A model generated the notes under the pieces. It was not told the DNA's origin. It worked only from the letters and a program-made list of their open reading frames with translations, and did not search any database. The translations under genes were made by a program, and so were the position numbers. A DNA stretch of 64,000 nt, taken from positions 8,523 to 72,522 of the forward strand of contig JAJPHY010000054.1 of NCBI GenBank assembly GCA_021325015.1, written 5' to 3'. Below, one piece after another: positions 12,032 through 46,877 of this stretch; positions within the stretch are counted from its first letter, which is position 1; each line of letters starts with the position of its first letter. Origin of the DNA: Actinomycetota bacterium. Its GTDB lineage: Bacteria > Actinomycetota > UBA4738 > HRBIN12.

Positions 12032-12058
12032 GCTCCTACCCCCGCCATCGGTAGGAGC
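12032..12058. promoter_or_regulatory. Palindrome GCTCCTACC-N9-GGTAGGAGC, 5 nt upstream of the dynamin-like gene start and containing its SD
   Basis: Read directly from the sequence. A near-identical copy at 12195..12221 abuts the ATG of the divergent gene. Confidence 0.45.
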
Positions 12059-12104
12059 CATCAGCCCGGAGCGGGCGGTCGGCGGGCCCCATCGCCTGTT
12101 GTGG

Positions 12105-12132
12105 AGTATAGGCATCGGTCCCTCCTATACTG
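12105..12132. promoter_or_regulatory. Inverted repeat AGTATAGG-N12-CCTATACT in the centre of the divergent promoter
   Basis: Perfect 8-bp arms read from the sequence. The element is AT-rich and -10-like (TATAGG / TATACT). Confidence 0.35.
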
Positions 12133-12194
12133 CGTCGGGCGATTCGTTCGCCCGAGGCGATGGAGCTCGCCGAACCGCTCGACGTGAGCTGATA

Positions 12195-12221
12195 GCTCCT
12201 ACCCGTCGGGGAGGTAGGGGC
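12195..12221. promoter_or_regulatory. Palindrome GCTCCTACC-N9-GGTAGGGGC directly abutting ATG 12222 and containing the SD
   Basis: Read directly from the sequence. It is a twin of the element at 12032..12058. Confidence 0.45.
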
Positions 12222-34704: not shown

Positions 34705-36279
34705 TCAGGCGCGAACGCGCTGGAGCGCCCGCATCACGGCTCCGCGCTCCCCCGGCGTGAGACCGGTGAGGAGGAACGCGGTGGAGTAGACGAGGCCGCC
34801 CGCGAGCCCGGTGCCGAGCAGGTCGATCCCCCACTTCGGACCCGAGAGCAGCGCGTGCACGCCGATCATCGCCGCGGCCCCCACCGCCGCCGGGACGGCG
34901 AGGCGGAGGTAGTGGCGGTCGTACGGTTGGATCCGCACGAACCGCCACACGAGCAGTAGACGGAAGGTGTTGGAGAACACGAGGGTCGATGCCTGGGCGA
35001 TCGCGGCCCCCTTCGGCCCCATGCCGGGGACGAGCGCGACCGCCACGCCGAGGTCGAGGGCGAAGGAGGACGCGTACACGAGCAGGTCCCAGCCCGTGCG
35101 CCCCACCATGATGAGGACGAACCCGGCCGCCCCGACGCTCACGTTCACGATCTGCCCGACGAGCAGGATCCGCAGCCACGACGTGCCGGTCGAGTAGTTG
35201 CCGCCGAAGACCTTCAGCACCGGACCGGGCGCGATCAGGAACAGGAGCAGCAGCGGGATCGTGCCGGCGAGCGTCCACCGCGTGATCGACTTGAACAGCC
35301 CGTCGAGCCGGTCGCGCTCGCCGCGCTCGTGCAGGTCGGCCACGAAGGGGCTGAACATGTACGAGACGGCGGTCAGGAACAGGACGAGCGCCTGCGCCAC
35401 TCGCACAGCGGCCGCGTAGACGGAGAGGTCGGCGCTTCCCGACGGCAGGTAGTGCGAGAGCACGAACAGGTCCGTGTAGAACAGCGCCTGCGACAGGAGC
35501 GCGGCCGGCGCGCGCGGCGCGCCGTAGCGCAGGAGCGCGGCGGCCTCGTGCGGCTCGGCGGGCATCGGCTCGAACGCCGCAGTCTCCCGCCGCCACAGGA
35601 CCCACGCGAGCGCCGTGGCCACGACCCACGAGAGCGTGTACGTCCACACGGTGACGGCGACCGTCTTCTCGACCACGCTCCATCCGACCAGCGTGAGCGC
35701 GATCCACGAGATCGGCTGGCCGATCCAGTACGCATAGAGCGTGTGGCGCATGATCTTCAGCCCGCGGCTACCGCCGAGGTATACCTGCGCCAGCGCGACG
35801 AACGCGAGCCCGATCGCCGCCGCCCGGAACGCGCTCGCCGGCGCGTGCAGGAACGACGAGAGGGGGGTCGCGAGCAGGAGCCCGGCGGCCGCCACGACGA
35901 CCGAGACGCCGAGCGCGACGAGCGCGGCGATCCGCACGATCGCGCGCGAGCGGCCGGGCTCCCCCTTGCCGACCTCGATCGCGACGCGCCGGACCGAGGC
36001 CATGTCCATGCCGAACCGCGTCGCGGCCCCGGCGACGAACGCGAGCTGGGTGGCGAGCGTGACCTGCCCGAAGGCCGCCGAGTGCTTGCCGAACGCGCGG
36101 GCGATCAGGACGTTCATCCCGAAGCTCGCCAGCACGAACACCGCGAGCCCGACGACGTTCTGCCCGGTCCCGGCCAGGATCGTCACGTGGTCCCGGCCGT
36201 GGGCGTCCTCGCCGAGACCGAGCGCGTCGGCCAGGCGGGCCCCTTCCGCCCGCGACCGACGACCCCGCTCCGAGCTCAC
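34705..36279 (-). CDS. MOP-superfamily polysaccharide/lipid-linked oligosaccharide flippase (Wzx/MurJ-like)
   Basis: About 14 TM segments. GTG 36279 is preceded by GAGGAGGAGGGG. Confidence 0.7.
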   Translation of the reverse strand: MSSERGRRSRAEGARLADALGLGEDAHGRDHVTILAGTGQNVVGLAVFVLASFGMNVLIARAFGKHSAAFGQVTLATQLAFVAGAATRFGMDMASVRRVAIEVGKGEPGRSRAIVRIAALVALGVSVVVAAAGLLLATPLSSFLHAPASAFRAAAIGLAFVALAQVYLGGSRGLKIMRHTLYAYWIGQPISWIALTLVGWSVVEKTVAVTVWTYTLSWVVATALAWVLWRRETAAFEPMPAEPHEAAALLRYGAPRAPAALLSQALFYTDLFVLSHYLPSGSADLSVYAAAVRVAQALVLFLTAVSYMFSPFVADLHERGERDRLDGLFKSITRWTLAGTIPLLLLFLIAPGPVLKVFGGNYSTGTSWLRILLVGQIVNVSVGAAGFVLIMVGRTGWDLLVYASSFALDLGVAVALVPGMGPKGAAIAQASTLVFSNTFRLLLVWRFVRIQPYDRHYLRLAVPAAVGAAAMIGVHALLSGPKWGIDLLGTGLAGGLVYSTAFLLTGLTPGERGAVMRALQRVRA

Positions 36280-36430
36280 CGACGACCCCTCCTCCTCGCC
36301 CGGAGCCACCCTCGGCCCGGTCCGGCCCGGCAGCCTACCGCGCGGTCGCGTCGGCCCCTCCTCATCGTCAAGGAATCTCCATTCCGAGGCATCGCCATCC
36401 CGCGCGGAGCCTGGAAGACTCGCCCTGCCG

Positions 36431-37330
36431 ATGATCACGTTCGTCCAGTCGACGGTCATGGGGCTCCTGCAGGGGTTCAGCGAGCTCTTCCCGATCTCGA
36501 GCCTCGGACACAGCGTGCTCGTGCCCGCCCTTCTCGGCTGGCACCGCGTGGTCTCCTCACAGTCGCGGAGCGAGTCGTTCTTCCTCGCGTTCCTCGTCGG
36601 CCTGCACGTGGCGACCGCGCTCGCGCTCCTGGTCTACTTCCGCTCGGACTGGGCGCGGCTCATCGGCGGCTTCTTCCGCACGCTGCGGACCCGCAGGATC
36701 GAAGACGCCGACGAGCGGATGGCCTGGCTCCTCGTGGTCGGGACGATCCCGGTGGGGATCACCGGCCTGCTGCTCGAGCACGCGCTCCGCGTGCTGTTCG
36801 CCAAACCGCTCGCGGCCGCCGCGTTCCTCGCCGTGAACGGCGCGATCCTGTTCGCCGGCGAGCGCCTGCGACGGCGGGCGGAGGTCCGCCAGCTCGTCGC
36901 CGCGAGCGCCGGGGCCGGCGACGGGGGCGAGCCCGGCCGGAACCTGGAGACGCTGGCCTTCCGCGAGGCGTTCGTGATCGGGCTGTTCCAGACGCTCGCC
37001 CTCCTCGAGGGGATCAGCCGCTCTGGCATCACGATGGTCGCCGGACTGCTGCGCGGCCTGAACCACGAGGACGCCGCCAGGTTCTCGTTCCTGCTCGCGA
37101 CGCCGGTGATCCTCGCCGCCGGCCTCTACAAGCTCCCCGACCTCCTCGGCCCGCTCGGCAACGGGATCCGCCCGCAGGTGCTGGTCGGCGCGATCGCGGC
37201 CGGGATCACCGCGTACCTGTCGGTGCGGTTCCTGATGCGCTACTTCCAGACGCGGACGCTCACGCCGTTCGCGGTCTACTGCCTGCTCGCGGGCGGGCTC
37301 GCCCTCGTCTACTTCGGCCTGATCCGCTGA
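36431..37330 (+). CDS. uppP: Undecaprenyl-diphosphatase
   Basis: GFSELFPISSLGHSVL, ISRSGITMVAGLLRGL and RFSFLLATPVILAA are BacA/UppP signature regions. Confidence 0.85.
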   Translation: MITFVQSTVMGLLQGFSELFPISSLGHSVLVPALLGWHRVVSSQSRSESFFLAFLVGLHVATALALLVYFRSDWARLIGGFFRTLRTRRIEDADERMAWLLVVGTIPVGITGLLLEHALRVLFAKPLAAAAFLAVNGAILFAGERLRRRAEVRQLVAASAGAGDGGEPGRNLETLAFREAFVIGLFQTLALLEGISRSGITMVAGLLRGLNHEDAARFSFLLATPVILAAGLYKLPDLLGPLGNGIRPQVLVGAIAAGITAYLSVRFLMRYFQTRTLTPFAVYCLLAGGLALVYFGLIR

Positions 37331-37436
37331 GGCGTTCGGCCCGGAGCCCCGAGCTCGGAGCCGGCCCGGTACGATCCCGCGCTGAGCGTCCCGCGCGGCG
37401 GAGCGCGGGCCGCGCCGACGACCCGAGGAGGCGTGC

Positions 37437-37844
37437 ATGGCGGACGACGATCGCTACGAACGCGGGCGCAGGCGCCTGGCCGAGATCCACGGCGAGCGCT
37501 CCCTGGCCACGATCGAGTCGCTCGGCGACCTCGGCCGCTACATCGTCGAGTTCGCGTACGGCGAGGTGTACTCGAGGCCGGGGCTCTCCCTCCGCGACCG
37601 GCAGATCGCGACGGTCGCCGTGCTGGTCGCGCTCGGTCGCTCGTCGCAGCTCCCGGTGCACCTGCGCTCCTCGCTCGCGGCCGGCCTCACGCCCGACGAG
37701 CTTCGCGAGATCATCCTGCAGACGGCGACCCTCGCCGGGTTCCCGCCGGCGATGAACGCGATGTCGACCCTGAAGACCATCCTCTCCGAACGCGAGGACC
37801 CGGCCGGTCGGCCCGAGGCCGGCCCGGCTACGAGCGGGAACTAG
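37437..37844 (+). CDS. Carboxymuconolactone decarboxylase (AhpD-like) family protein
   Basis: YIVEFAYGEVYSRPGLSLRDRQIATVAVLVALG is the CMD domain. Confidence 0.8.
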   Translation: MADDDRYERGRRRLAEIHGERSLATIESLGDLGRYIVEFAYGEVYSRPGLSLRDRQIATVAVLVALGRSSQLPVHLRSSLAAGLTPDELREIILQTATLAGFPPAMNAMSTLKTILSEREDPAGRPEAGPATSGN

Positions 37845-37858
37845 TCCGTGACAGACTA
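37840..37858. repeat. Palindrome CTAGTCCGT-G-ACAGACTAG overlapping the TAG stop of the CMD gene; ACTAGTCTG family
   Basis: Read directly from the sequence. Followed at 37862..37883 by the GC hairpin GGCGCGCC-CCGCGT-GGCGCGCC. Confidence 0.5.
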
Positions 37859-38057
37859 GATGGCGCGCCCCGCGTGGCGCGCCGGTAGGCCGGCATGCTG
37901 GCGCGGCTCCCGAACACCCCGTCGAGCCCGGAGCACGACCCGACGGCTCGTCGATGAACCGGTTCGTCGCGGGCCTCCTCGAGGCGATCGGGGTGCGGGC
38001 CCGACCCGGGGCCGAGGTGGTCGGGGTGCGCGACCGACCCGGTACGCTCGCGCCGCC

Positions 38058-39590
38058 ATGTTGTTCGAGGACGTCGCACGGACCTCGGCAGAGGTCGCCC
38101 GGACCAGCTCCCGATCGAGGAAGGTCGAGCTCCTGGGCGGGCTCCTCCGCTCGGCGGGTCCGGCCGAGGTCCCGGTGGTGGTCGCCTACCTGTCCGGAGC
38201 GCTCCCGCACGGGCCGGTCGGCGTGGGATGGGCCTCGCTCCGCGACCTTCCCCCTCCCGCGTCGCGCGCCACCCTCGGGGTTCGCGAGGTCGACGCCGCG
38301 CTCCGACGGATCGGCTCTCTGTCGGGAGCGGGGTCGCAGTCCGCGCGGCGGCGGGAGCTCGCCGACCTGTTCGGGCGGGTCACCGAGCTCGAGCGGCGGT
38401 TCCTGATCGGGTTGCTGACCGGCGAGGTCCGGCAGGGCGCGCTCGAGGGCGTGATGGTCGAGGCCGTGGCGCGGGCGGCGGAGGTTCCGCCGGGGGCGGT
38501 GCGGCGGGCGCTGATGCTCGGAGCCGACCTCGGAGCGGTGGCCGCGGCGGTCCTCGCCGAGAGCGAGCGCGGGCTCGCTCGGTTCCGCCTCCAGGTGCTC
38601 GAGCCGGTCCAGCCGATGCTCGCCCGGACGGCCTCGGATCTCGCCGGGGCGTTCGGGCGGATCGCGCCCGCGTCGATCGAGTGGAAGCTCGACGGCGCAC
38701 GCATCCAGGTGCACCGCCGTGGCGACCGGGTCCGCGTCTTCACCAGGAACCTGGCCGACGCCACCGAGCGCGTGCCCGAGATCGTCGAGCGGGTCCTCGC
38801 GCTCCCGGTGGAGGCGGTCGTGCTCGACGGCGAGGCGATCGCCCTCCGCGACGACGGACGCCCTCGCGCGTTCCAGGTGACGATGCGCCGGTTCGGAAGC
38901 CGGCGGGGAGTCGAGGAGCTCCGCGCGGAGATCCCCCTGTCCTGCTTCTTCTTCGACGCGCTCCACCTGGACGGGGAGGACCTGATCGACCGGCCGCAGG
39001 CGGCGCGGTTCGAGGCGCTTCGCGAGCGGGTGCCGCCCGATCTGGTCGTGCCCCGCACCGAGGCGGCGACGGATGCGGAGGCCCGGCCATTCCTGGAGGA
39101 GACGCTCGCGCGCGGGCACGAGGGCGTGATGGTCAAGGCGCTCGACGCGCCGTACGAGGCCGGCCGCCGCGGCGCGAGCTGGCTGAAGGTCAAGCGCGCG
39201 CACACGCTCGACCTGGTCGTGCTCGCCGCCGAGTGGGGGCACGGGCGTCGGCGGGGGTGGCTCAGCAACCTGCACCTCGGCGCGCGCGATCCGTCCTCCG
39301 GCGGGTTCGTGATGCTCGGCAAGACCTTCAAGGGGATGACCGACCAGATGCTGGCGTGGCAGACGGAACGCCTGCTCGAGCTCGAAGCGGCCCGGGACCG
39401 CTCCACCGTCTACGTGCGCCCGGAGCTGGTCGTCGAGGTCGCGTTCGACGGGCTGCAGGAGAGCCCGAGGTACCCGGGCGGGCTCGCGCTCCGGTTCGCC
39501 CGCGTGAAGGGCTACCGGCCCGACAAGCGGGCCGGCGAGGCGGACACGATCGAGACCGTGCGGGCGATCCACGCGGGCTCGAACTCCTGA
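38058..39590 (+). CDS. ligB: ATP-dependent DNA ligase (LigB-type)
   Basis: N-terminus MLFEDVARTSAEVARTSSRSRKVELLGGLL is mycobacterial LigB-like. Adenylation motif I EWKLDGARIQ, plus the OB domain. The ORF-track start at 37860 is likely too far upstream. Confidence 0.85.
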   Translation: MLFEDVARTSAEVARTSSRSRKVELLGGLLRSAGPAEVPVVVAYLSGALPHGPVGVGWASLRDLPPPASRATLGVREVDAALRRIGSLSGAGSQSARRRELADLFGRVTELERRFLIGLLTGEVRQGALEGVMVEAVARAAEVPPGAVRRALMLGADLGAVAAAVLAESERGLARFRLQVLEPVQPMLARTASDLAGAFGRIAPASIEWKLDGARIQVHRRGDRVRVFTRNLADATERVPEIVERVLALPVEAVVLDGEAIALRDDGRPRAFQVTMRRFGSRRGVEELRAEIPLSCFFFDALHLDGEDLIDRPQAARFEALRERVPPDLVVPRTEAATDAEARPFLEETLARGHEGVMVKALDAPYEAGRRGASWLKVKRAHTLDLVVLAAEWGHGRRRGWLSNLHLGARDPSSGGFVMLGKTFKGMTDQMLAWQTERLLELEAARDRSTVYVRPELVVEVAFDGLQESPRYPGGLALRFARVKGYRPDKRAGEADTIETVRAIHAGSNS

Positions 39591-39615
39591 TCGCCCGGGC
39601 GCTGCCCGAGCGCCG

Positions 39616-40836
39616 TCACGGCGCCCGGCTGGCCTCGAACACCGGGACCGGGCTCCCGAACCCCTTGAGCTCGACCTCACCCATCTCGGCGAACGCGAAC
39701 CCGCGCCCCGAAGCCGGCCCGACGACCTCGCCGCTCACGAGCGTCTGTCCGGCGCTCGCCACGGCGGCGATGCGGGCCGCGAGGTTCACCGTTCGACCGA
39801 AGTAGTCGCCGTCCTGGAAGACGGCCGGGCCGGCGGCCACCCCGGCGTGCGCCGGCAGCCCGAGCTCGGGCGCCCGGTGCACCACCTCGAGCGTCGCCTC
39901 GACCGCGTCTCCGGGGTCGCGGAAGTGCACCATCACGCCGTCGCCGAGCCACTTGATCGGTTTGCCTCCGGCCTCGGTGGTGACGCGGTCGACCACGTGC
40001 CCCAGGTCGGCGGCCAGGCGCGCGCTCGCCTCATCGCCGTGCTGTTCGGTGAGCGCCGTGAACCCGGCGAGGTCGACGAAGGCGAATGCCGGCGGCCGTG
40101 CCGGCCGCTCGTACAGGCCCATCTCGTCGAGCACACCCTCGATACCCTCGACGGTCAACGCGTTCCAGGCGCGCTCCTGCTGGCGCCGGTAGGCCACCAG
40201 CACCATCCGCTCCTGCAGCGGGGTCGACTCGGCCCCGAACGCATTGGCCGCGTCGACCGCCTCCCGGTACGACATCCCCCGGCGGACGAACGCGCCGAGC
40301 ACGAACTTCTCGAACAGCGCCGCCTCGGCGTCGACGATCCGCCGCATCGCGTCGGCGTACACCCGAGCCGTGCGGAGGAGGGCATCCCGGTCGAACACCG
40401 TGGCGGCGAGGCGGACCAGCGGGAAGATCTCGAGCTCGTCCTCGCGGATCCGGTCCGACGGCAGGCGGCGGGTCGAGCCCATCGACTGCGCGACGTCGAG
40501 CACGAGCTCGATTGGTAGCTGCATGCGCTCGGCCAGCTCTTCGTAGGTGAGGTCGGCGAGCGTGGACCACCGATAGTGCGGCAGATCCATGAACGAGAGC
40601 GAGACGCGCCCCTCGGCGATGGCCCGACCGATCGCTGCGGCCGGCATCCCCGCGAGCTCACACGCCGAGACGAATCGGACCCGGTGGACGTCGCCCTGGG
40701 TAAACGGCTCGTCGCCGTCGGCCGGAAACAGGACGCCGTGCTCGACGAGCCGGTCGATCGCCGCGACGTCCACGCCCGCGCGTTCGGCGAGCGCCTCGCG
40801 CGAGAGGCGGTCAGGCTCCAGGGACGGAGGGTCCAT
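39616..40836 (-). CDS. Class III adenylate/guanylate cyclase with N-terminal HTH-containing domain
   Basis: Catalytic motifs FAFVDLAGFTALT, WLGDGVMVHF and GRTVNLAARI. The N-terminal HTH-like stretch is LSREALAERAGVDVAAIDRLVEHGVL. Confidence 0.8.
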   Translation of the reverse strand: MDPPSLEPDRLSREALAERAGVDVAAIDRLVEHGVLFPADGDEPFTQGDVHRVRFVSACELAGMPAAAIGRAIAEGRVSLSFMDLPHYRWSTLADLTYEELAERMQLPIELVLDVAQSMGSTRRLPSDRIREDELEIFPLVRLAATVFDRDALLRTARVYADAMRRIVDAEAALFEKFVLGAFVRRGMSYREAVDAANAFGAESTPLQERMVLVAYRRQQERAWNALTVEGIEGVLDEMGLYERPARPPAFAFVDLAGFTALTEQHGDEASARLAADLGHVVDRVTTEAGGKPIKWLGDGVMVHFRDPGDAVEATLEVVHRAPELGLPAHAGVAAGPAVFQDGDYFGRTVNLAARIAAVASAGQTLVSGEVVGPASGRGFAFAEMGEVELKGFGSPVPVFEASRAP

Positions 40837-40927
40837 GGACGCCCAAGAGTATCAGGGAGCAACCACGGTGGACGGGGGCGGCCGGCGGCACAGGCGCAGC
40901 TCCCGCGCCGGCGCTCACCGCCGACCG

Positions 40928-42103
40928 CTATCCGGCGGGCACCGGCGTACGGAGCATGGGCGTTCGACCGCAGTTTGCTCGGTACCGCTCGAACCGTTCC
41001 AGCACGTCCGCCGGCAGATCCGGCAACCCGGGCGGCCCGGCCCGGTACTTTGTCCCGTCGGGCCGGTACCAGGCCACGGCGCCGTCGGCCGCGCGCTCGA
41101 TGCGCCACCCGTGCTCGTGCACCAGCCGGTGATGGAACGTGCAGATCATCAGGAGGTTGTCGAGATCGGTTCGGCCGCCCCTGGACCACCACTTGATGTG
41201 ATGGGCTTTCAGGTAGCTCCGGCGGCCGCAGCCCGGGAACCGGCACTCGGGGTCGCGGTGCCGAAGCAGGCGGAGCATGCTCGCCGGGGGTTCCCTCCGG
41301 GCTCGCCCGAGAGCGAGCGGATTGCCCGCCCCGTCCTCGGCGACCACTTGGAGCCTTGCCTCGCAGGCGAGCCGCTGAAGCGCGGCGCCCACGACCACGC
41401 CCTCGAACCCCACCCGCGCGGAACGATCGTCGCTCAGGAGGGCCTCGGCTGGCGCGTGGATCAGGATCGTGGGCGTCGGGTCGGCCGAACCCCGGCACAC
41501 CGCCACGAGGGCGTCGGCCAGCCGCTCCGGCCCGTTCGGGTCCTCGTCCGGCATGGTCGGGAGCCGGTCAGCCACCCGGTCCAGACACTGCTCGACCACC
41601 GCCATCTCGGCGGCCGGCAGGCGGGCGAGGAGCTCGCCCATCGTTCCCTCGTCGGCGTACCAGATGTTTACCGAACGAGCGCGCTCGGCTTGCTCGGCCT
41701 CCTCCCGCGACCGCCTGACCTCGAGATCGCCCCGCCGGCGTATCGTGGCGGCGGAGACCTCTCCGGCCCAGCGGAGCAGCCGAGCCTCGGTTTCGGGCGT
41801 GGCGAACCGGCAGAGCTCGAGCACCTTGTCGATCCCGATCTCGCCCCGCTCGAACGCGCCCGCGATCCGCGGGAGGGATCGAAGCGCGTGCCCGGCACGG
41901 ATCCAGCGCTCGGCCTTCCACCAGGAGACGCCGTATCGCATCGAGACGTAGTGGCTCATGCTCATGGCGCCGGAGTCAGTCCAGACCGCGCGCTCGTCGG
42001 CGCGAGCGATGAGCTCGAGCATCCGACGCTGCGAGCGGCAGATCTCGGCGTTCGACCGGTCGATCTCGTCGACGAGCTCTTCGCGTGTGGTCGAGGGCCG
42101 CAT
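40928..42103 (-). CDS. DUF222 plus HNH endonuclease domain protein (mycobacterial REP13E12-like family)
   Basis: N-terminal DUF222 (EICRSQRRMLELIARADERAVW) and C-terminal HNH (CRFPGCGRRSYLKAHHIKWWSRGGRTDLDNLLMICTFHHRLVHE). Confidence 0.8.
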   Translation of the reverse strand: MRPSTTREELVDEIDRSNAEICRSQRRMLELIARADERAVWTDSGAMSMSHYVSMRYGVSWWKAERWIRAGHALRSLPRIAGAFERGEIGIDKVLELCRFATPETEARLLRWAGEVSAATIRRRGDLEVRRSREEAEQAERARSVNIWYADEGTMGELLARLPAAEMAVVEQCLDRVADRLPTMPDEDPNGPERLADALVAVCRGSADPTPTILIHAPAEALLSDDRSARVGFEGVVVGAALQRLACEARLQVVAEDGAGNPLALGRARREPPASMLRLLRHRDPECRFPGCGRRSYLKAHHIKWWSRGGRTDLDNLLMICTFHHRLVHEHGWRIERAADGAVAWYRPDGTKYRAGPPGLPDLPADVLERFERYRANCGRTPMLRTPVPAG

Positions 42104-42273
42104 GATCCGAAGTATCGAACATGCGTTCGGAGGCGTCAGTGAGGTCGGTCACATCCGGACCGAAATCCGCCGGCGGCACCGAACTTGTCCCCCAGGTGGG
42201 GCCCGTGGTGGGCTCCCGGTGCCGCGGCGGGGAGGCGAGCCGGAGCCCCCCTCCGGACGGTCGGAGGACGCTC

Positions 42274-43848
42274 CTATTCGAGGTAGCCGAGGCCGCGCAG
42301 GTGCTCCTCCATCTCGTCGGCCTCGGTGTCGGAGACGGTCGGCTCCTCGGCGACCGCGACGGCGGCCGGAACCGACTCGCCGGCCCTGACCGAGGCCTCG
42401 GCGCCGACGACCTCGTGCAGGACGCGACCGGTGGGCTTGATCGAGGCGGGCGCGTCGAGCGCGGCCAGGATCGTCGGGGCGAGGTCGATGAGCTTCGGCT
42501 CCTGCTCGAAGGGCTTCACGTTCGGACCGACGGCCACGATCACGCCCTCGGGTCGGTGGTCGCCGGAAACCCAATCGGCGTCCTCGATCGCGGACTTCGC
42601 GTGGGTGAGCGAGTAGCCCTCGGCAGGCTCCATGAGGATGTCGGGCGCGGTGTCGGCATGCCTGCCCTTGAAGACCTCTTCCTTCTTGAAGATCGCCTTG
42701 ACGGGCTTGCGCCCGGTCTTGGGGTCGACGAAGGAGGCGAGCCGGTCCATCACCTCGTCGCGGACGCGCTCGAAGTCGCCGGGGTCGACGATGCCGTCCG
42801 GCTCGCGGCCGGCCAGGTTGATCGAGACGCCCTCGCCGGTCGAGCGGATCGAGGTGTACGCGCGGGTCTTGGACCAGTTCACGGGCTGCGGCAGGGAGAC
42901 CTTGCCGTGCAGGCCGAGCACGTCGTAGAGCTTCCGCGCGATCTTGCGGACGGCGCCCCACTGCATCGGACCGAAGACCACGTTCGACGCGCTGAACTCG
43001 AGGTAGCCGAGCTTCTTCAGCAGGTGGTCCATGTGGATCGTGCGGGTACAGGACTGGAACCCGTGGTCGGAGATGAACAGGATCAGGTCGTCCTCGCGCG
43101 TGCGCGAGACGAACGAGCCGATCGCGTCGTCGAGCTGCTTGTAGACGTCGCGGACCTTCGAGGCGAGCGCGGTGTCCTTGTTCCTTGCGTAGTCGGGGTG
43201 ATCGGGGCCGACGTAGTTGGAGAGGGCGTGCTGGGTGCGATCGACCGAGACCCAGACGGAGGCCATCAGGTCCCAGTCGGTGTTGTCCATCAGCCACTCG
43301 GTCGCGCGGATCCGCTTGCCGGTGATGTCGAGGGCCTCGGCCAGGTACGGCTCGGGCCGGTTCCGGTAGGTGGTCCAGGACATACCGTTGATCTCCCAGG
43401 GCACGCCGGCCTTCGCGAGCGTCTCGGGCAGGTCGGCGGGGTGGGAGTAGGTGCGGTTCTTCGGAAGGACCCCGCCGGCCAGGATCCGCCCGTTGATCTC
43501 GGGGGGCGGGAACATCAGGGGCACGTCGGCGTAGACCCCGACCTTGCCGGCCGCCGAGAGGTCCTCGACGAACGTGCGCTCCTTGATCGATCGATAGGTG
43601 ACCGGGTAGGCCTTGTGGGTGCCCGGGACGGTCTCGAGGATGTCGTAGACGCCGTGGTCGGCCGGGTCGACGCCCGTCAGGAACGATGGCCAGGCCGCCC
43701 ACGAGTGGGTCGGGACGGTCGAGCGCAGGACCGCCCGCTGCCCCCGGCCGATCAGGGCCTCGAGGTTCGGCAGGTCGCCCCGCTCGAGCAGGGGGTCGAG
43801 GATGCGCCAGTCGGCGCCGTCCCATCCGATCAGGAGTACTCGTGGCAT
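42274..43848 (-). CDS. Alkaline-phosphatase-superfamily protein (type I phosphodiesterase / nucleotide pyrophosphatase-like)
   Basis: MPRVLLIGWDGADWRIL...LILFISDHGF metal-binding core. C-terminal LRGLGYLE. Confidence 0.8.
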   Translation of the reverse strand: MPRVLLIGWDGADWRILDPLLERGDLPNLEALIGRGQRAVLRSTVPTHSWAAWPSFLTGVDPADHGVYDILETVPGTHKAYPVTYRSIKERTFVEDLSAAGKVGVYADVPLMFPPPEINGRILAGGVLPKNRTYSHPADLPETLAKAGVPWEINGMSWTTYRNRPEPYLAEALDITGKRIRATEWLMDNTDWDLMASVWVSVDRTQHALSNYVGPDHPDYARNKDTALASKVRDVYKQLDDAIGSFVSRTREDDLILFISDHGFQSCTRTIHMDHLLKKLGYLEFSASNVVFGPMQWGAVRKIARKLYDVLGLHGKVSLPQPVNWSKTRAYTSIRSTGEGVSINLAGREPDGIVDPGDFERVRDEVMDRLASFVDPKTGRKPVKAIFKKEEVFKGRHADTAPDILMEPAEGYSLTHAKSAIEDADWVSGDHRPEGVIVAVGPNVKPFEQEPKLIDLAPTILAALDAPASIKPTGRVLHEVVGAEASVRAGESVPAAVAVAEEPTVSDTEADEMEEHLRGLGYLE

Positions 43849-44140
43849 GGAAATCAGTCCTCAGCAGGGGGTTCGGGTCCGGGAGAGTCTACCCAAGGAG
43901 GGCGCGGGCACTCCCGTTCTCGTCGCGTGTCAACGCCAGGGCCCTCCCCGCGCACATGTGAGTGATGAGGGCGGAGACTCGGGGGCCGATCACAGTGTTT
44001 GAGAGCTCGTTCGAGTCCTTCCGCCGCGCATGGTTCCCGTCGGTCGGCCGCGCCGTGGCGCTCGTGGTGAGGGATCTGGATCAGGGGAGCTGGCGACCGC
44101 GGGTACCTCCGGGTTTGACGAAAGGGCAGAGTGCTCCATA

Positions 44141-44171
44141 ACCTACTGGTTCTATAAACGAGAGGCTATAG
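44141..44171. promoter_or_regulatory. AT-rich inverted repeat TCTATA-N10-TATAGA immediately upstream of arsR-family gene; candidate operator
   Basis: Read directly from the sequence. It overlaps the presumptive -10/SD region. Confidence 0.3.
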
Positions 44172-44561
44172 ATGGCAACGACTGTGGCAGACCCGCTCGA
44201 TGCGGTGTTCGGGGCGCTCGCGGATCCGACGCGGAGGGCGATCCTCTCCCGTCTGGCGCAGGGGGAGGCGACCGTCACGGAGCTCGCCGCGCCGTTCAGC
44301 GTCTCGCAGCCGGCGATCTCGCGGCACCTCAAGGTGCTCGAGCACGCCGGGCTGATCTCCCGGACCCGGCGGGCCACCGCCCGCCTCAGCCACCTCCGGG
44401 CCGAGCCGCTCCGCGAGGCGACCGTGTGGCTTGCCGGCTATCGGAAGTTCTGGGAGGAGAGCTACGAGCGGCTCGACGAGCTGCTCGAGACCCTGCAGTC
44501 GCAGGGGCAGGAGACCGACCGATCGCGACCGAGCGATCCGGCAGGAAGGAGCACGACGTGA
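44172..44561 (+). CDS. ArsR/SmtB-family transcriptional regulator
   Basis: LADPTRRAILSRLAQGEATVTELAAPFSVSQPAISRHLKVLEHAGLI. Confidence 0.85.
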   Translation: MATTVADPLDAVFGALADPTRRAILSRLAQGEATVTELAAPFSVSQPAISRHLKVLEHAGLISRTRRATARLSHLRAEPLREATVWLAGYRKFWEESYERLDELLETLQSQGQETDRSRPSDPAGRSTT

Positions 44562-45040
44562 CCGAGATGCAGATCACCGCCGAGCCCGGGGTTCCGCAGA
44601 TCCTGACCTCGCGCGAGTTCGCCGCGCCGCGCGACCTGGTGTTCCGCGCGTTCACGGAGCCGGACCTGCTCGTCCAATGGCTCGGACCTCGCAGGTACAA
44701 GATGACGATCGACCGGTGGGACCTCCGGGACGGCGGCACGTATCGCTACGTCCACGCCGACGAGGCCGGCAACGAGTTCGGGTTCCACGGCGTGTTCCAC
44801 GGCGATCCCTCACCCGACGGCATCGTGCAGACGTTCGAGTTCGAGGGCGCTCCCGGCCACGTCTCGATGGACACGGCGACGTTCGAGGAACGGGACGGCA
44901 AGACGATCGTCCGCATCAACTCGGTATTTCAGTCGGTCCAGGCCCGCGACGCGATGGTCGATGCCGGCATGGCGAGCGGCATGAGCGAGGGGTACGAGCG
45001 CCTCGACGACCTGCTCGCCAGGCTGGTCGCGAACGGCTGA
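44558..45040 (+). CDS. SRPBCC / AHSA1-domain protein
   Basis: The GTG start overlaps the arsR stop (GTGA), with AGGAAGGAG 8 nt upstream. AHSA1-like fold sequence is present. Confidence 0.8.
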   Translation: MTEMQITAEPGVPQILTSREFAAPRDLVFRAFTEPDLLVQWLGPRRYKMTIDRWDLRDGGTYRYVHADEAGNEFGFHGVFHGDPSPDGIVQTFEFEGAPGHVSMDTATFEERDGKTIVRINSVFQSVQARDAMVDAGMASGMSEGYERLDDLLARLVANG

Positions 45041-45072
45041 AAGAGCCGCTGACCCCGGAAAGGGAGAGGACC

Positions 45073-45543
45073 ATGCAGAAGATCACACCGTGCCTGTGGT
45101 TCGACACCCAGGCCGAGGAGGCCGCGACCTTCTACGTCTCGCTGTTCGACGATGCGGAGGTGAAGAGCGTCCAGCACCTGGACGGGACCCCGAGCGGGGA
45201 CGACGTGGCGCTGGTGTCCTTCCGGCTGGAGGGTCAGGAGTTCACGGCGATCAACGGCGGGCCGCAGTTCCCGTTCACCGAGGCCGTCTCGTTCCAGGTC
45301 TCGTGCAAGGACCAGGCCGAGGTGGACCGGCTCTGGAGGGCGATCACCGCCGACGGGGGCGAGGAAGGGCAGTGCGGCTGGTGCAAGGACCGGTTCGGCC
45401 TGAGCTGGCAGATCATCCCCGATCGGATGGGCGAGCTCCTGGGCGATCCCGACCCCGAACGCGCCCAGCGCGCGATGCAGGCGATGCTCCAGATGCGGAA
45501 GATCGACGTCGCGGCGCTCGAGCGCGCGGCCGACGGTACCTGA
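45073..45543 (+). CDS. VOC (glyoxalase/bleomycin-resistance) superfamily protein, PhnB-like
   Basis: MQKITPCLWFDTQAEEAATFYVSLF...WCKDRFGLSWQI. Confidence 0.8.
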   Translation: MQKITPCLWFDTQAEEAATFYVSLFDDAEVKSVQHLDGTPSGDDVALVSFRLEGQEFTAINGGPQFPFTEAVSFQVSCKDQAEVDRLWRAITADGGEEGQCGWCKDRFGLSWQIIPDRMGELLGDPDPERAQRAMQAMLQMRKIDVAALERAADGT

Positions 45544-45573
45544 GGCCGGGGCCCGGGCTCCGGGGAGGGGTTC

Positions 45574-46365
45574 GTGGAGATCGAGGTCGGAGGGCTCCGG
45601 ATCGCATACGAGCGGCGGGGGAGCGGACCGCCGATCGTCCTGCTCCACGGCGGGCTGGCCGACCACCGCGACTGGGAACCTCAGCTCGAAGGGCTCTGTG
45701 ACGAGCTCACGGTCGTCGCCTGGGACGCGCCGGGATGCGGAGGCTCGGACGACCCGCCGCCGGCGTTCCGGTTCCCCGATTACGCGGAGGTGCTCGCCGG
45801 GTTCATCGAGGAGCTCGGGCTGGAGAGGCCACACGTGCTCGGGCTCTCGTGGGGTTCGACGCTCGCTCTGGAGCTCTACCGCCGGCGCCCCGATGTGCCG
45901 CGAACGCTGATCCTGGCGGCCGCCTACGCGGGCTGGGCGGGCTCCCTGCTGCCCGAGGTGGTCGAACGGCGAGTGGCCGACACGCTGGCAGAGCTCGAGA
46001 CCCTTCCACCGCAGGACTATGCGAGGACGTGGATCCCGACTTTGTTCACGGAGCGTGCGCCCGCCGGGCTCGTCGAACACTACCTGGGGGTGATGGCCCA
46101 GTTCCACCCCGCCGGGGTCCGACCGATGCTCCACGCGATGGCCGAGGCGGACCTGCGGGAGGTTCTGCCGACGATCGGGGTCCCCACGCTCCTGCTCTAC
46201 GGGGAGCTGGACGTTCGCTCACCGATCGACGTGGCCCGCCAGATGCAGGCGCGCATTCCCGGCTCCACCCTCGTGGTGCTCCCCAAGGTCGGCCACATGG
46301 GCAACCTCGAGACGCCGGAGGCGTTCAACGCCGCGGTGCGCGAGTTCCTCGCCCGCGGAGGTTAA
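45574..46365 (+). CDS. Alpha/beta-fold hydrolase
   Basis: HGGLADHRDWE, nucleophile elbow GLSWGS and C-terminal His (KVGHMGNLE). Confidence 0.85.
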   Translation: MEIEVGGLRIAYERRGSGPPIVLLHGGLADHRDWEPQLEGLCDELTVVAWDAPGCGGSDDPPPAFRFPDYAEVLAGFIEELGLERPHVLGLSWGSTLALELYRRRPDVPRTLILAAAYAGWAGSLLPEVVERRVADTLAELETLPPQDYARTWIPTLFTERAPAGLVEHYLGVMAQFHPAGVRPMLHAMAEADLREVLPTIGVPTLLLYGELDVRSPIDVARQMQARIPGSTLVVLPKVGHMGNLETPEAFNAAVREFLARGG

Positions 46366-46877
46366 GTCTTGCCGCCTCGCCCGGTTTCCTCCAGGATCCG
46401 GCGGAGCACGGGCAGGACGAGCCGGTCCTTCTCGCGGCCGGCGGCCTCCTTGGACCGGATGACGTCGGCGAGCGAGGCCACGTCCACGTCGACCCCCAGG
46501 ATCCTGAGGCGCACGGCGTCCCTCGAGACGTCCTCGTATCCGGCGGTCCCCGTCGGCTCGAACGTGATGTCGAGCCGGCCGTGATCGGTCACGAGGTTCC
46601 ACACCGCAGAGGCGGCGAGCGATCGCGCGTCGTGATCGAACGGGAGCCCCTCGGGTTTGTCGACCGTCCAGACCCGCGCATGCATCGCCTTCAACGCCTC
46701 CGAGAGCCGGCGGAGGTTCTCCTCGGTTCGGTCCGGCACGACGTCGACGTCGACCGTGACGTACGGGGACCCGTGGATCACCGCGGCGAAGCCGCCGATG
46801 AGGACGAACCGTACCCCGTGCTCTCGAAGGACGGCGAGGATCCGCTCGGGCGCGAGCTCGGGTTCAGGACCGACCAC
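46362..46877 (-). CDS. Minimal nucleotidyltransferase-fold protein (putative toxin partner)
   Basis: FVLIGGFAAVIHGSPYVTVDVDVVPD is an NTase GS...D.D-like motif. The GTG start overlaps the 3' end of the upstream XRE gene by 14 nt. Confidence 0.65.
   Translation of the reverse strand: MVGPEPELAPERILAVLREHGVRFVLIGGFAAVIHGSPYVTVDVDVVPDRTEENLRRLSEALKAMHARVWTVDKPEGLPFDHDARSLAASAVWNLVTDHGRLDITFEPTGTAGYEDVSRDAVRLRILGVDVDVASLADVIRSKEAAGREKDRLVLPVLRRILEETGRGGKT

Follow-up and report, generated by a model that had tools for sequence, protein, structure and literature searches.

A DUF222-HNH endonuclease gene behind a putative LexA-controlled promoter in an uncultured actinobacterium: a probable vertically inherited gene rather than a recent mobile insertion

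Introduction

Does a lone nuclease gene lying between a nucleotide cyclase gene and a phosphodiesterase gene mark a recent mobile insertion, or is it an inherited gene with a regulation and a function of its own? The question is raised by a gene for a DUF222-HNH protein at positions 40928..42103 (minus strand) in 64,000 nucleotides of DNA from an Actinomycetota bacterium (assembly GCA_021325015.1, contig JAJPHY010000054.1, positions 8,523 to 72,522; this whole stretch is called the window below). An earlier note, made from the sequence alone, had taken the gene for a relative of the mycobacterial REP13E12 repeat proteins that was inserted between its two neighbours and marked the stretch as accessory and potentially mobile. 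We regard a different reading as fairly probable, namely that this is a vertically inherited, single and functional DUF222-HNH endonuclease gene with its own LexA-controlled promoter, whose SOS-timed cutting would feed RecA-dependent recombination.

Few uncharacterised nucleases are as common in Actinomycetota as the DUF222-HNH proteins. LexA control of the 13E12 family is already known from M. tuberculosis (PMC3381160, PMC8151990), and the LexA-box/leaderless promoter design of that species is conserved in distant uncultured soil actinobacteria. The new leads from this locus are a CRP-type palindrome that appears to occupy an activator position and a predicted ParB/KorB-like DNA-binding domain in the protein.

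The gene and its product

The window has a G+C content of 72%, and chance long open reading frames (ORFs) occur in every frame. That the DUF222-HNH ORF is nevertheless a real gene follows from its more than 1300 homologues, a G+C content at third codon positions (GC3) of 0.89 and a ratio of nonsynonymous to synonymous substitution rates (dN/dS) of 0.20 against its orthologue P0002. The gene starts with ATG and encodes 391 amino acids, in which an N-terminal DUF222 domain (Pfam PF02720, residues 23-284, E=5.2e-19, 69.1 bits against a gathering cut-off of 24.4) and a C-terminal HNH domain (PF01844, residues 291-322, E=4.4e-6, 27.2 bits against 21.4) are joined in one polypeptide. The ORF list and Pfam thus agree with the earlier note on this architecture and on the place of the gene between cyclase and AlkP-family genes. 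The HNH nuclease/zinc-finger core comprises residues ~284-333 (41105..41254, minus strand) and retains C287, C292, H301, H302, N316, C321, H324, H325 and H329, all of which are invariant across 49 sequences; the fold matches of this part are of the McrA/TagI/IscB type. For the N-terminal helical domain, residues ~7-115 (41759..42085, minus strand), a ParB/Spo0J/KorB-like helix-turn-helix (HTH) fold is predicted, which superposes on the HTH DNA-binding domain of KorB with a root-mean-square deviation of 3.2 Å over 95 residues at 20% identity. From this modelled fold we infer that the ParB/KorB-like domain is the DNA-binding part of the protein.

A foreign origin of the gene judged by composition was ruled out, as its G+C content (0.714) matches that of its surroundings (~0.72) and its GC3 is just slightly low. 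Likewise rejected was a longer form of the protein suggested by a 416-aa database call (P0001): the call stems from a 1-bp deletion in the 98.7%-identical strain L020 (relatives and their loci are given here by L numbers), and the window holds no longer protein. In L020 (positions 1583-1610; window 42101-42122) the T of the ATG at 42103 is deleted, and an ATG inside the LexA box described below (42120-42122) takes over as in-frame start (MFDTSDQRPSTT...), at the position where L001-L004 start as well. The 416-aa call, made from an upstream GTG in L020, is probably an over-extension.

Inheritance of the locus

One relative, L021, is represented by a 677-kb contig that is collinear with positions 29404-53845 of the window at ~87% nucleotide identity. 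It carries the orthologous gene P0002 (82% amino acid identity) in the same place, directly downstream of the gene for a Type I phosphodiesterase/AlkP-superfamily protein (PDE), and the PDE proteins of the two are 96% identical. L021 is without the cyclase gene, and its HNH ORF reads straight into the antisense strand of the 3' end of a DNA ligase gene. Collinear BLAST and alignment place the segment that is present in the window lineage and missing in L021 at 39582..41026 (minus strand), where it comprises the last 33 HNH codons, the 91-nt spacer and the cyclase gene. In the window GCCCGGG stands at both junctions of this segment, which would be compatible with a microhomology-mediated deletion in L021. 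Since L021 keeps the HNH gene beside PDE and is without the cyclase, the polymorphic piece is the cyclase segment and not the HNH gene, and the notion of an HNH gene inserted between the two neighbours had to be given up.

Between the window and L021 the HNH gene shows a dN/dS of 0.20 at a synonymous divergence (dS) of 0.50, and its neighbours show dN/dS values of 0.07-0.24 at dS values of 0.24-0.44. Because the value for the HNH gene falls within the range of its neighbours, the gene is taken to be functional and vertically inherited. The exact 391-aa protein occurs on 6 public contigs, and all 5 places displayed have the same PDE-HNH-cyclase context. More distant relatives were sampled through 80 metagenomic loci with a PDE orthologue of 72-87% identity, and at none of these does an HNH gene directly follow PDE. 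Eight of them (L030, L031, L077, L079, L085, L087, L088, L099) have MatE directly downstream of PDE, with MMPL next where the contig is long enough, and in six more MatE follows after a gap of 1-5.6 kb filled with unrelated small genes. The slot between PDE and MatE is therefore lineage-variable. All close relatives seen have the HNH gene at this site; the site is empty only where PDE is at most 87% identical at the amino acid level and the whole block differs. In the closest relatives the gene appears to be single-copy and syntenic, in more distant ones it is not, and what survives of the view that the stretch is accessory or potentially mobile is the variable content of the PDE-MatE slot, not a recent mobile insertion of the HNH gene.

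Signs of mobility were also sought in the window itself and in sequence collections. The window contains no second copy of the gene at the protein or DNA level and, over its 64 kb, no tRNA; no integrase or prophage genes lie within or beside the HNH gene. Inspection of its flanks for direct or inverted repeats, terminal inverted repeats (TIRs), target-site duplications (TSDs) and att-like repeats yielded just the short, low-identity, imperfect matches expected by chance in DNA of 72% G+C. Among 5.8 billion proteins searched, the closest matches were the gene's own product and a single orthologue (82%); nothing else exceeds 57% identity, and hence there is no sign of recent paralogous copies. 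The lone copy in 64 kb, the single context of the exact protein, this gap in identity and the dN/dS of 0.20 together lend no support to a multicopy or recently mobile state of the gene. The link to phages fared no better: weak family matches numbered 2 in 50,697 phage records and 5 in 72,556 plasmids, 2.9 million viral contigs of IMG/VR gave none, PHROGs matched the generic HNH motif and nothing else, and no family of the PADLOC defence-system models matched the HNH protein. A phage, plasmid or viral origin was rejected on these essentially negative collections. Neither a phiRv1-type attachment site nor a prophage was recognised in the HNH gene, although an attB core for an unknown phage remains conceivable. 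A recent mobile insertion is not indicated by the HNH gene; what truly varies in structure at this locus are the cyclase segment and the wider PDE-MatE slot.

The promoter module and its conservation

The gene is flanked by non-coding spacers of 91 nt downstream (40837-40927; 90 nt in the earlier note) and 170 nt upstream (42104-42273), and, as noted before, neither has Shine-Dalgarno (SD)-like signals; in particular, no GGAGG-like SD precedes the ATG. When the upstream spacer is compared with that of L021, the PDE-proximal ~95 nt cannot be aligned, whereas conservation extends over the ~70 nt next to the ATG. On the minus strand this conserved module reads TGTGACCGACCTCACT GACGCCTC CGAACGCATGTTCG ATACTTCGGATC ATG. 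One recognisable element is a LexA (SOS, Cheo-type) box, CGAACGCATGTTCG, of the form CGAAC-N4-GTTCG (42116..42129, read on the minus strand), which lies 13 nt from the ATG, is conserved in L021 and is the single match to GAAC-N4-GTTC in 64 kb, where 0.2-0.5 would be expected. Another is a 16-bp palindrome, TGTGACCGACCTCACT (42138..42153, minus strand), with a TGTGA-N6-TCAC at 42139-42153 that resembles the CRP/FNR-type consensus TGTGA-N6-TCACA. This motif, too, is matched once in 64 kb (0.18 expected), and the site in L021 is a perfect match. The centre of the palindrome lies ~42 nt upstream of the ATG, the same distance as in L003, L112 and L116, so that it would sit at a class II activator position (near -41.5); judged by its sequence, the binder would be a protein of the CRP family.

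Around these two motifs a putative sigma-A-type promoter can be traced by sequence comparison and conserved geometry. A -35-like hexamer, CTGACG (42134..42139, minus strand), has the counterparts CTGACA in L112 and L116 and TTGACA in another promoter subgroup, and a 17-nt spacer separates it from a -10-like hexamer, GATACT (42111..42116, minus strand), which ends 7 nt before the ATG. The arrangement of GATACT or TAnnnT, 6-7 nt and a start codon recurs in the window, L021, L112, L116 and L001-L004, and the geometry as a whole is fixed: palindrome, CTGAC(A/G), 17-nt spacer, -10-like hexamer, 6-7 nt, start codon. In the subgroup of the window the LexA box lies within the 17-nt spacer; in L001-L004 the geometry is the same and the box lies over the start codon, with the ATG inside CGAACGCATGTTCG and in frame. 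A generic sigma-70 promoter scan did not call the HNH promoter (8/12 matches). The geometry predicts a leaderless mRNA, which would account for the missing SD and would remove the latter as a sign of foreignness. Examples of SOS genes in which translation starts at a transcription start site (TSS) inside the SOS box, an arrangement like that of L001-L004, have been described in M. tuberculosis (Smollett et al., PMC3381160).

A second promoter subgroup (L005, L010, L016, L041, L055, L118) combines a TTGACA -35 (TTGCAC in L016), a LexA box, TAnnnT and a leader of ~45 nt, and has no palindrome. Five of its members (L005, L010, L041, L055, L118) share a leader motif, TTCCTCCCCCGGAnCGGTTGG, before a GTG start and ~20-60 nt after the LexA box, which is perhaps anti-SD-like and folds no better than shuffled sequences. 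The same holds for RNA folds of the 3' spacer and of the leaders of other family members (z -0.7 to +1.4), and Rfam gave no structured RNA here, be it an IscB-like guide or a 5'-UTR element, at gathering cut-offs or at E<=1. A motif of the PafBC/RecA-NDp type (tTGTCRgtg-N8-TAnnnT) was considered and rejected, the only resemblance being partial, on the reverse strand and without a proper -10.

The conservation of both motifs extends beyond the immediate relatives. A LexA box lies upstream of or over the start in all 14 independent actinobacterial family members, and the palindrome lies upstream of 9 of the 14, always equally far from the start codon, although these relatives share ~50% protein identity and their intergenic DNA is otherwise unalignable. 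In 1.09 Mb of non-redundant DNA that served as background, the frequency per 120 nt was 0.003 for LexA-like boxes and 0.0003 for palindromes. Binomial P values, nominally 1e-35 for the box and 2e-29 for the palindrome, are overstated, the promoters being homologous. The palindrome is missing in 5 of the 14 despite equally similar proteins. The LexA box is missing upstream of the Acidobacteriota copies, and no clean box was found in the distant Mycobacterium and Brevibacterium copies sampled. No link between CRP and 13E12 genes was found in the searched literature.

Family distribution and the case for a selfish element

At E<=1e-10 the DUF222-HNH family comprises 11,099 clusters at 50% identity. 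Members that are ~50-57% identical to the window protein are lone genes in unrelated, often housekeeping, contexts, such as beside rplJ-rplL/rpoB-rpoC, between an IMPDH-like gene and guaA, or between a peptidase gene and cysS-ftsH, and one Acidobacteriota metagenome-assembled genome holds four family loci. At the loci examined no conserved immunity or antitoxin partner gene stands beside family members, and the adjacency to a DNA ligase gene is not seen at other family loci. The HNH unit that L041 and L055 share (91% nucleotide identity) starts at the -35, ~16 nt ahead of the LexA box, and its distance from PDE differs between the two. Breakpoints at the 3' end of family genes were found in two independent comparisons, window/L021 and L116/L117. 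The latter pair (L116 7227-7241, L117 5173-5187) is 99.94% identical over 5.2 kb including the left flank and the DUF222-HNH gene and unrelated from 14 nt past the stop codon, where a HEPN/nucleotidyltransferase pair follows in one sequence and PadR with a sensor kinase in the other. Over long times the unit of promoter and ORF behaves as a cassette, and breakpoints tend to its 3' end.

This behaviour is what lends some weight to the view of the gene as a REP13E12-like selfish element that is active and multicopy, homes or transposes, was inserted recently and marks a mobile, phage-targetable stretch. Such an element would explain lone members in contexts as unrelated as rplJL-rpoBC, IMPDH/guaA and cysS-ftsH, a family with several members in some genomes and with 19 genes in M. 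tuberculosis (PMC13157036), a unit that seems to travel with its promoter (homology from the -35 in L041/L055 and up to 14 nt past the stop in L116/L117), the absence of the HNH gene next to PDE in the 80 more distant relatives and the slightly lower GC3. At the window locus itself, however, the orthologue sits at the same site under purifying selection across a lineage dS of ~0.3-0.5, and the indel affects the cyclase rather than the HNH gene. Moreover, there is no second window copy, TIR, TSD, att-like repeat, tRNA or integrase, the nearest paralogue-level match does not exceed 57%, and phages, plasmids and IMG/VR contain next to no members of the family. We therefore consider a recent selfish insertion unlikely, if still the strongest of the alternatives.

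Proposed mechanism and remaining alternatives

For the vertically inherited, SOS-controlled endonuclease gene that we favour, a self-contained cassette with a compact promoter/operator of its own, the following course of events can be proposed. LexA would sit on the operator in the spacer of the sigma-A-type promoter and repress the HNH gene. Upon DNA damage, activated RecA would trigger LexA self-cleavage and thereby release a leaderless HNH transcript that starts at or next to the ATG. The CRP-type palindrome near -42 is probably the site of a further input, of the activator type, and a CRP-family protein may also be needed, because the -35 is weak exactly in those members that have the palindrome. 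The HNH protein would then bind DNA through its N-terminal ParB/KorB-like HTH and nick or cut it with its intact zinc-finger HNH site. Such an SOS-timed cut may stimulate RecA-dependent recombination, by a gene that would be selfish in origin and is now tolerated or useful. A role in recombination is favoured because of the family distribution, the breakpoints at the 3' ends and the inversion data from M. tuberculosis; cutting together with RecA-dependent recombination would account for both the scattered lone-gene distribution and the 3'-end breakpoints.

A promoter with the operator placed inside it would allow tight repression and in this respect would fit a dangerous product, which brings up a damage-triggered suicide or toxin nuclease with a function in programmed death or abortive defence. 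Cell-killing HNH DNases under SOS control have a precedent in the colicins E7 and E9. The M. smegmatis HNH nuclease MSMEG_1275 cuts genomic DNA at multiple sites and is toxic when overexpressed (PMC9416677). However, its membership in the DUF222 family is uncertain and four other HNH proteins in the same study were not toxic (PMC9416677), and family members lack a conserved immunity or antitoxin neighbour, a PADLOC match and secretion or translocation domains. A killing function is accordingly improbable.

A bolder extension, to which we attach a similarly small probability, sees in the DUF222-HNH genes of Actinomycetota, with their more than 11,000 clusters at 50% identity, self-contained cassettes of promoter and ORF that integrate LexA and CRP-type signals and whose ParB/KorB-HNH product cuts near its own locus, leading to RecA-dependent rearrangement or copying. 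They would then be a distinct kind of selfish gene, SOS-timed and dependent on recombination, that leaves no repeats, and in the window the adjacent adenylate cyclase could supply the cAMP input.

KorB/ParB-type domains bind palindromes of 13-16 bp. The weakest alternative, a domesticated, non-selfish repair factor of the SOS regulon (e.g. for stalled forks or crosslinks) with the palindrome as operator of a non-CRP regulator, possibly the HNH protein itself, can draw on these fold matches and on the purifying selection, stable synteny, conserved SOS box and nearby ATP-dependent DNA ligase gene, but is the least probable of all, as a patchy, context-free distribution and a multicopy state elsewhere are atypical of a core repair gene, the ligase is not a neighbour at other family loci and 5 of the 14 relatives with equally similar proteins lack the palindrome.

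Neighbouring genes and other features of the window

The two genes flanking the HNH gene lie on the same strand. Upstream is the PDE gene (42274-43848, minus strand; E=4.8e-35), in whose 90% cluster one protein was named by JGI a 'predicted AlkP superfamily phosphohydrolase/phosphomutase', and downstream is the class III nucleotide cyclase gene (39616-40836, minus strand; Guanylate_cyc E=1.2e-11). Beyond the cyclase gene a Pfam-assigned ATP-dependent DNA ligase gene (about 38223-39590, plus strand) is convergent. As judged from the PDE-orthologue loci, the block between PDE and MatE with the HNH, cyclase, ATP-dependent DNA ligase, CMD and BacA/UppP genes (36268..42273) is lineage-specific; L021 shares this content except for the cyclase gene. 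A terminator scan found no intrinsic terminator between the HNH and cyclase genes (its 2 terminator-like matches were both intragenic), and SOS-driven read-through from the HNH gene into the cyclase gene is possible. That a promoter bearing a CRP-type site has a cyclase gene for a neighbour is a coincidence to be kept in mind. The cyclase gave only weak matches to the PycC models of Pycsar in PADLOC (best E=2e-6), which fit a generic likeness to class III cyclases.

On the other side of PDE lies a second indel, in which positions 43898-46371 of the window (~2.5 kb) are replaced by ~87 nt in L021. This piece contains an ArsR-type regulator (44172-44561), an AHSA1/SRPBCC gene and a 3-demethylubiquinone-9 3-methyltransferase-like gene. 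Far from the locus, two fluoride riboswitches (Rfam RF01734; 47-49 bits against a gathering cut-off of 34) stand back-to-back on opposite strands at 12045-12105 (minus) and 12147-12208 (plus) and presumably control divergent fluoride-resistance operons.

Comparison with known systems

Among HNH nucleases, the McrA/TagI and IscB/Cas9 types differ from the window protein, which has no modification-reading domain, no RuvC and no guide RNA (Rfam negative) and scores far below the family cut-offs (23.6 against 180 and 19.7 against 175). With the HNH colicins (E7/E9) and MSMEG_1275 it shares a link between an HNH DNase and DNA damage or stress, here predicted from motifs. Unlike them, the window gene is chromosomal and conserved and comes without an immunity gene, and its product has neither receptor nor translocation domains. 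The resemblance to ParB, Spo0J, Noc and KorB concerns the predicted fold of residues ~7-115, which superposes on their HTH domain. The CTPase domain found at the N-terminus of ParB is missing, and the likeness is a structural one only, with moderate scores and no sequence-family match.

The closest parallel is provided by the 13E12 family of M. tuberculosis, with which the earlier note had compared the gene; the kinship stands as far as the DUF222-HNH domain architecture is concerned, but not as a close relation to the mycobacterial repeat. Identity to mycobacterial members is 25-34% at the amino acid level (L015 27%, L018 34%, over partial length). REP13E12 is a DNA repeat of ~1.4 kb in several similar copies, whereas the window holds one copy and the databases no high-identity paralogues, and neither prophage or attB evidence nor a RecA-NDp (PafBC) motif was recognised beside the window gene. 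In the searched literature, no CRP-like palindrome such as that of the window gene is reported for the M. tuberculosis genes. Six of the 13E12 genes of M. tuberculosis carry LexA ChIP-seq peaks, and DNA damage induces the family as a whole (PMC3381160); five putative HNH endonucleases of that species are induced in a RecA-dependent manner (PMC8151990). Genes of the 13E12 family, which has 19 members there, are known as inversion breakpoints via homologous recombination (PMC13157036). With these genes and their products the window gene has three features in common: the DUF222 domain followed by a C-terminal HNH domain, as in Rv0336, Rv0515, Rv1702c, Rv2100, Rv1588c and Rv0095c; a GAAC-N4-GTTC box at the promoter or start codon with the start codon at or near the TSS (PMC3381160), which is predicted in the present case; and the association with rearrangement breakpoints (PMC13157036).
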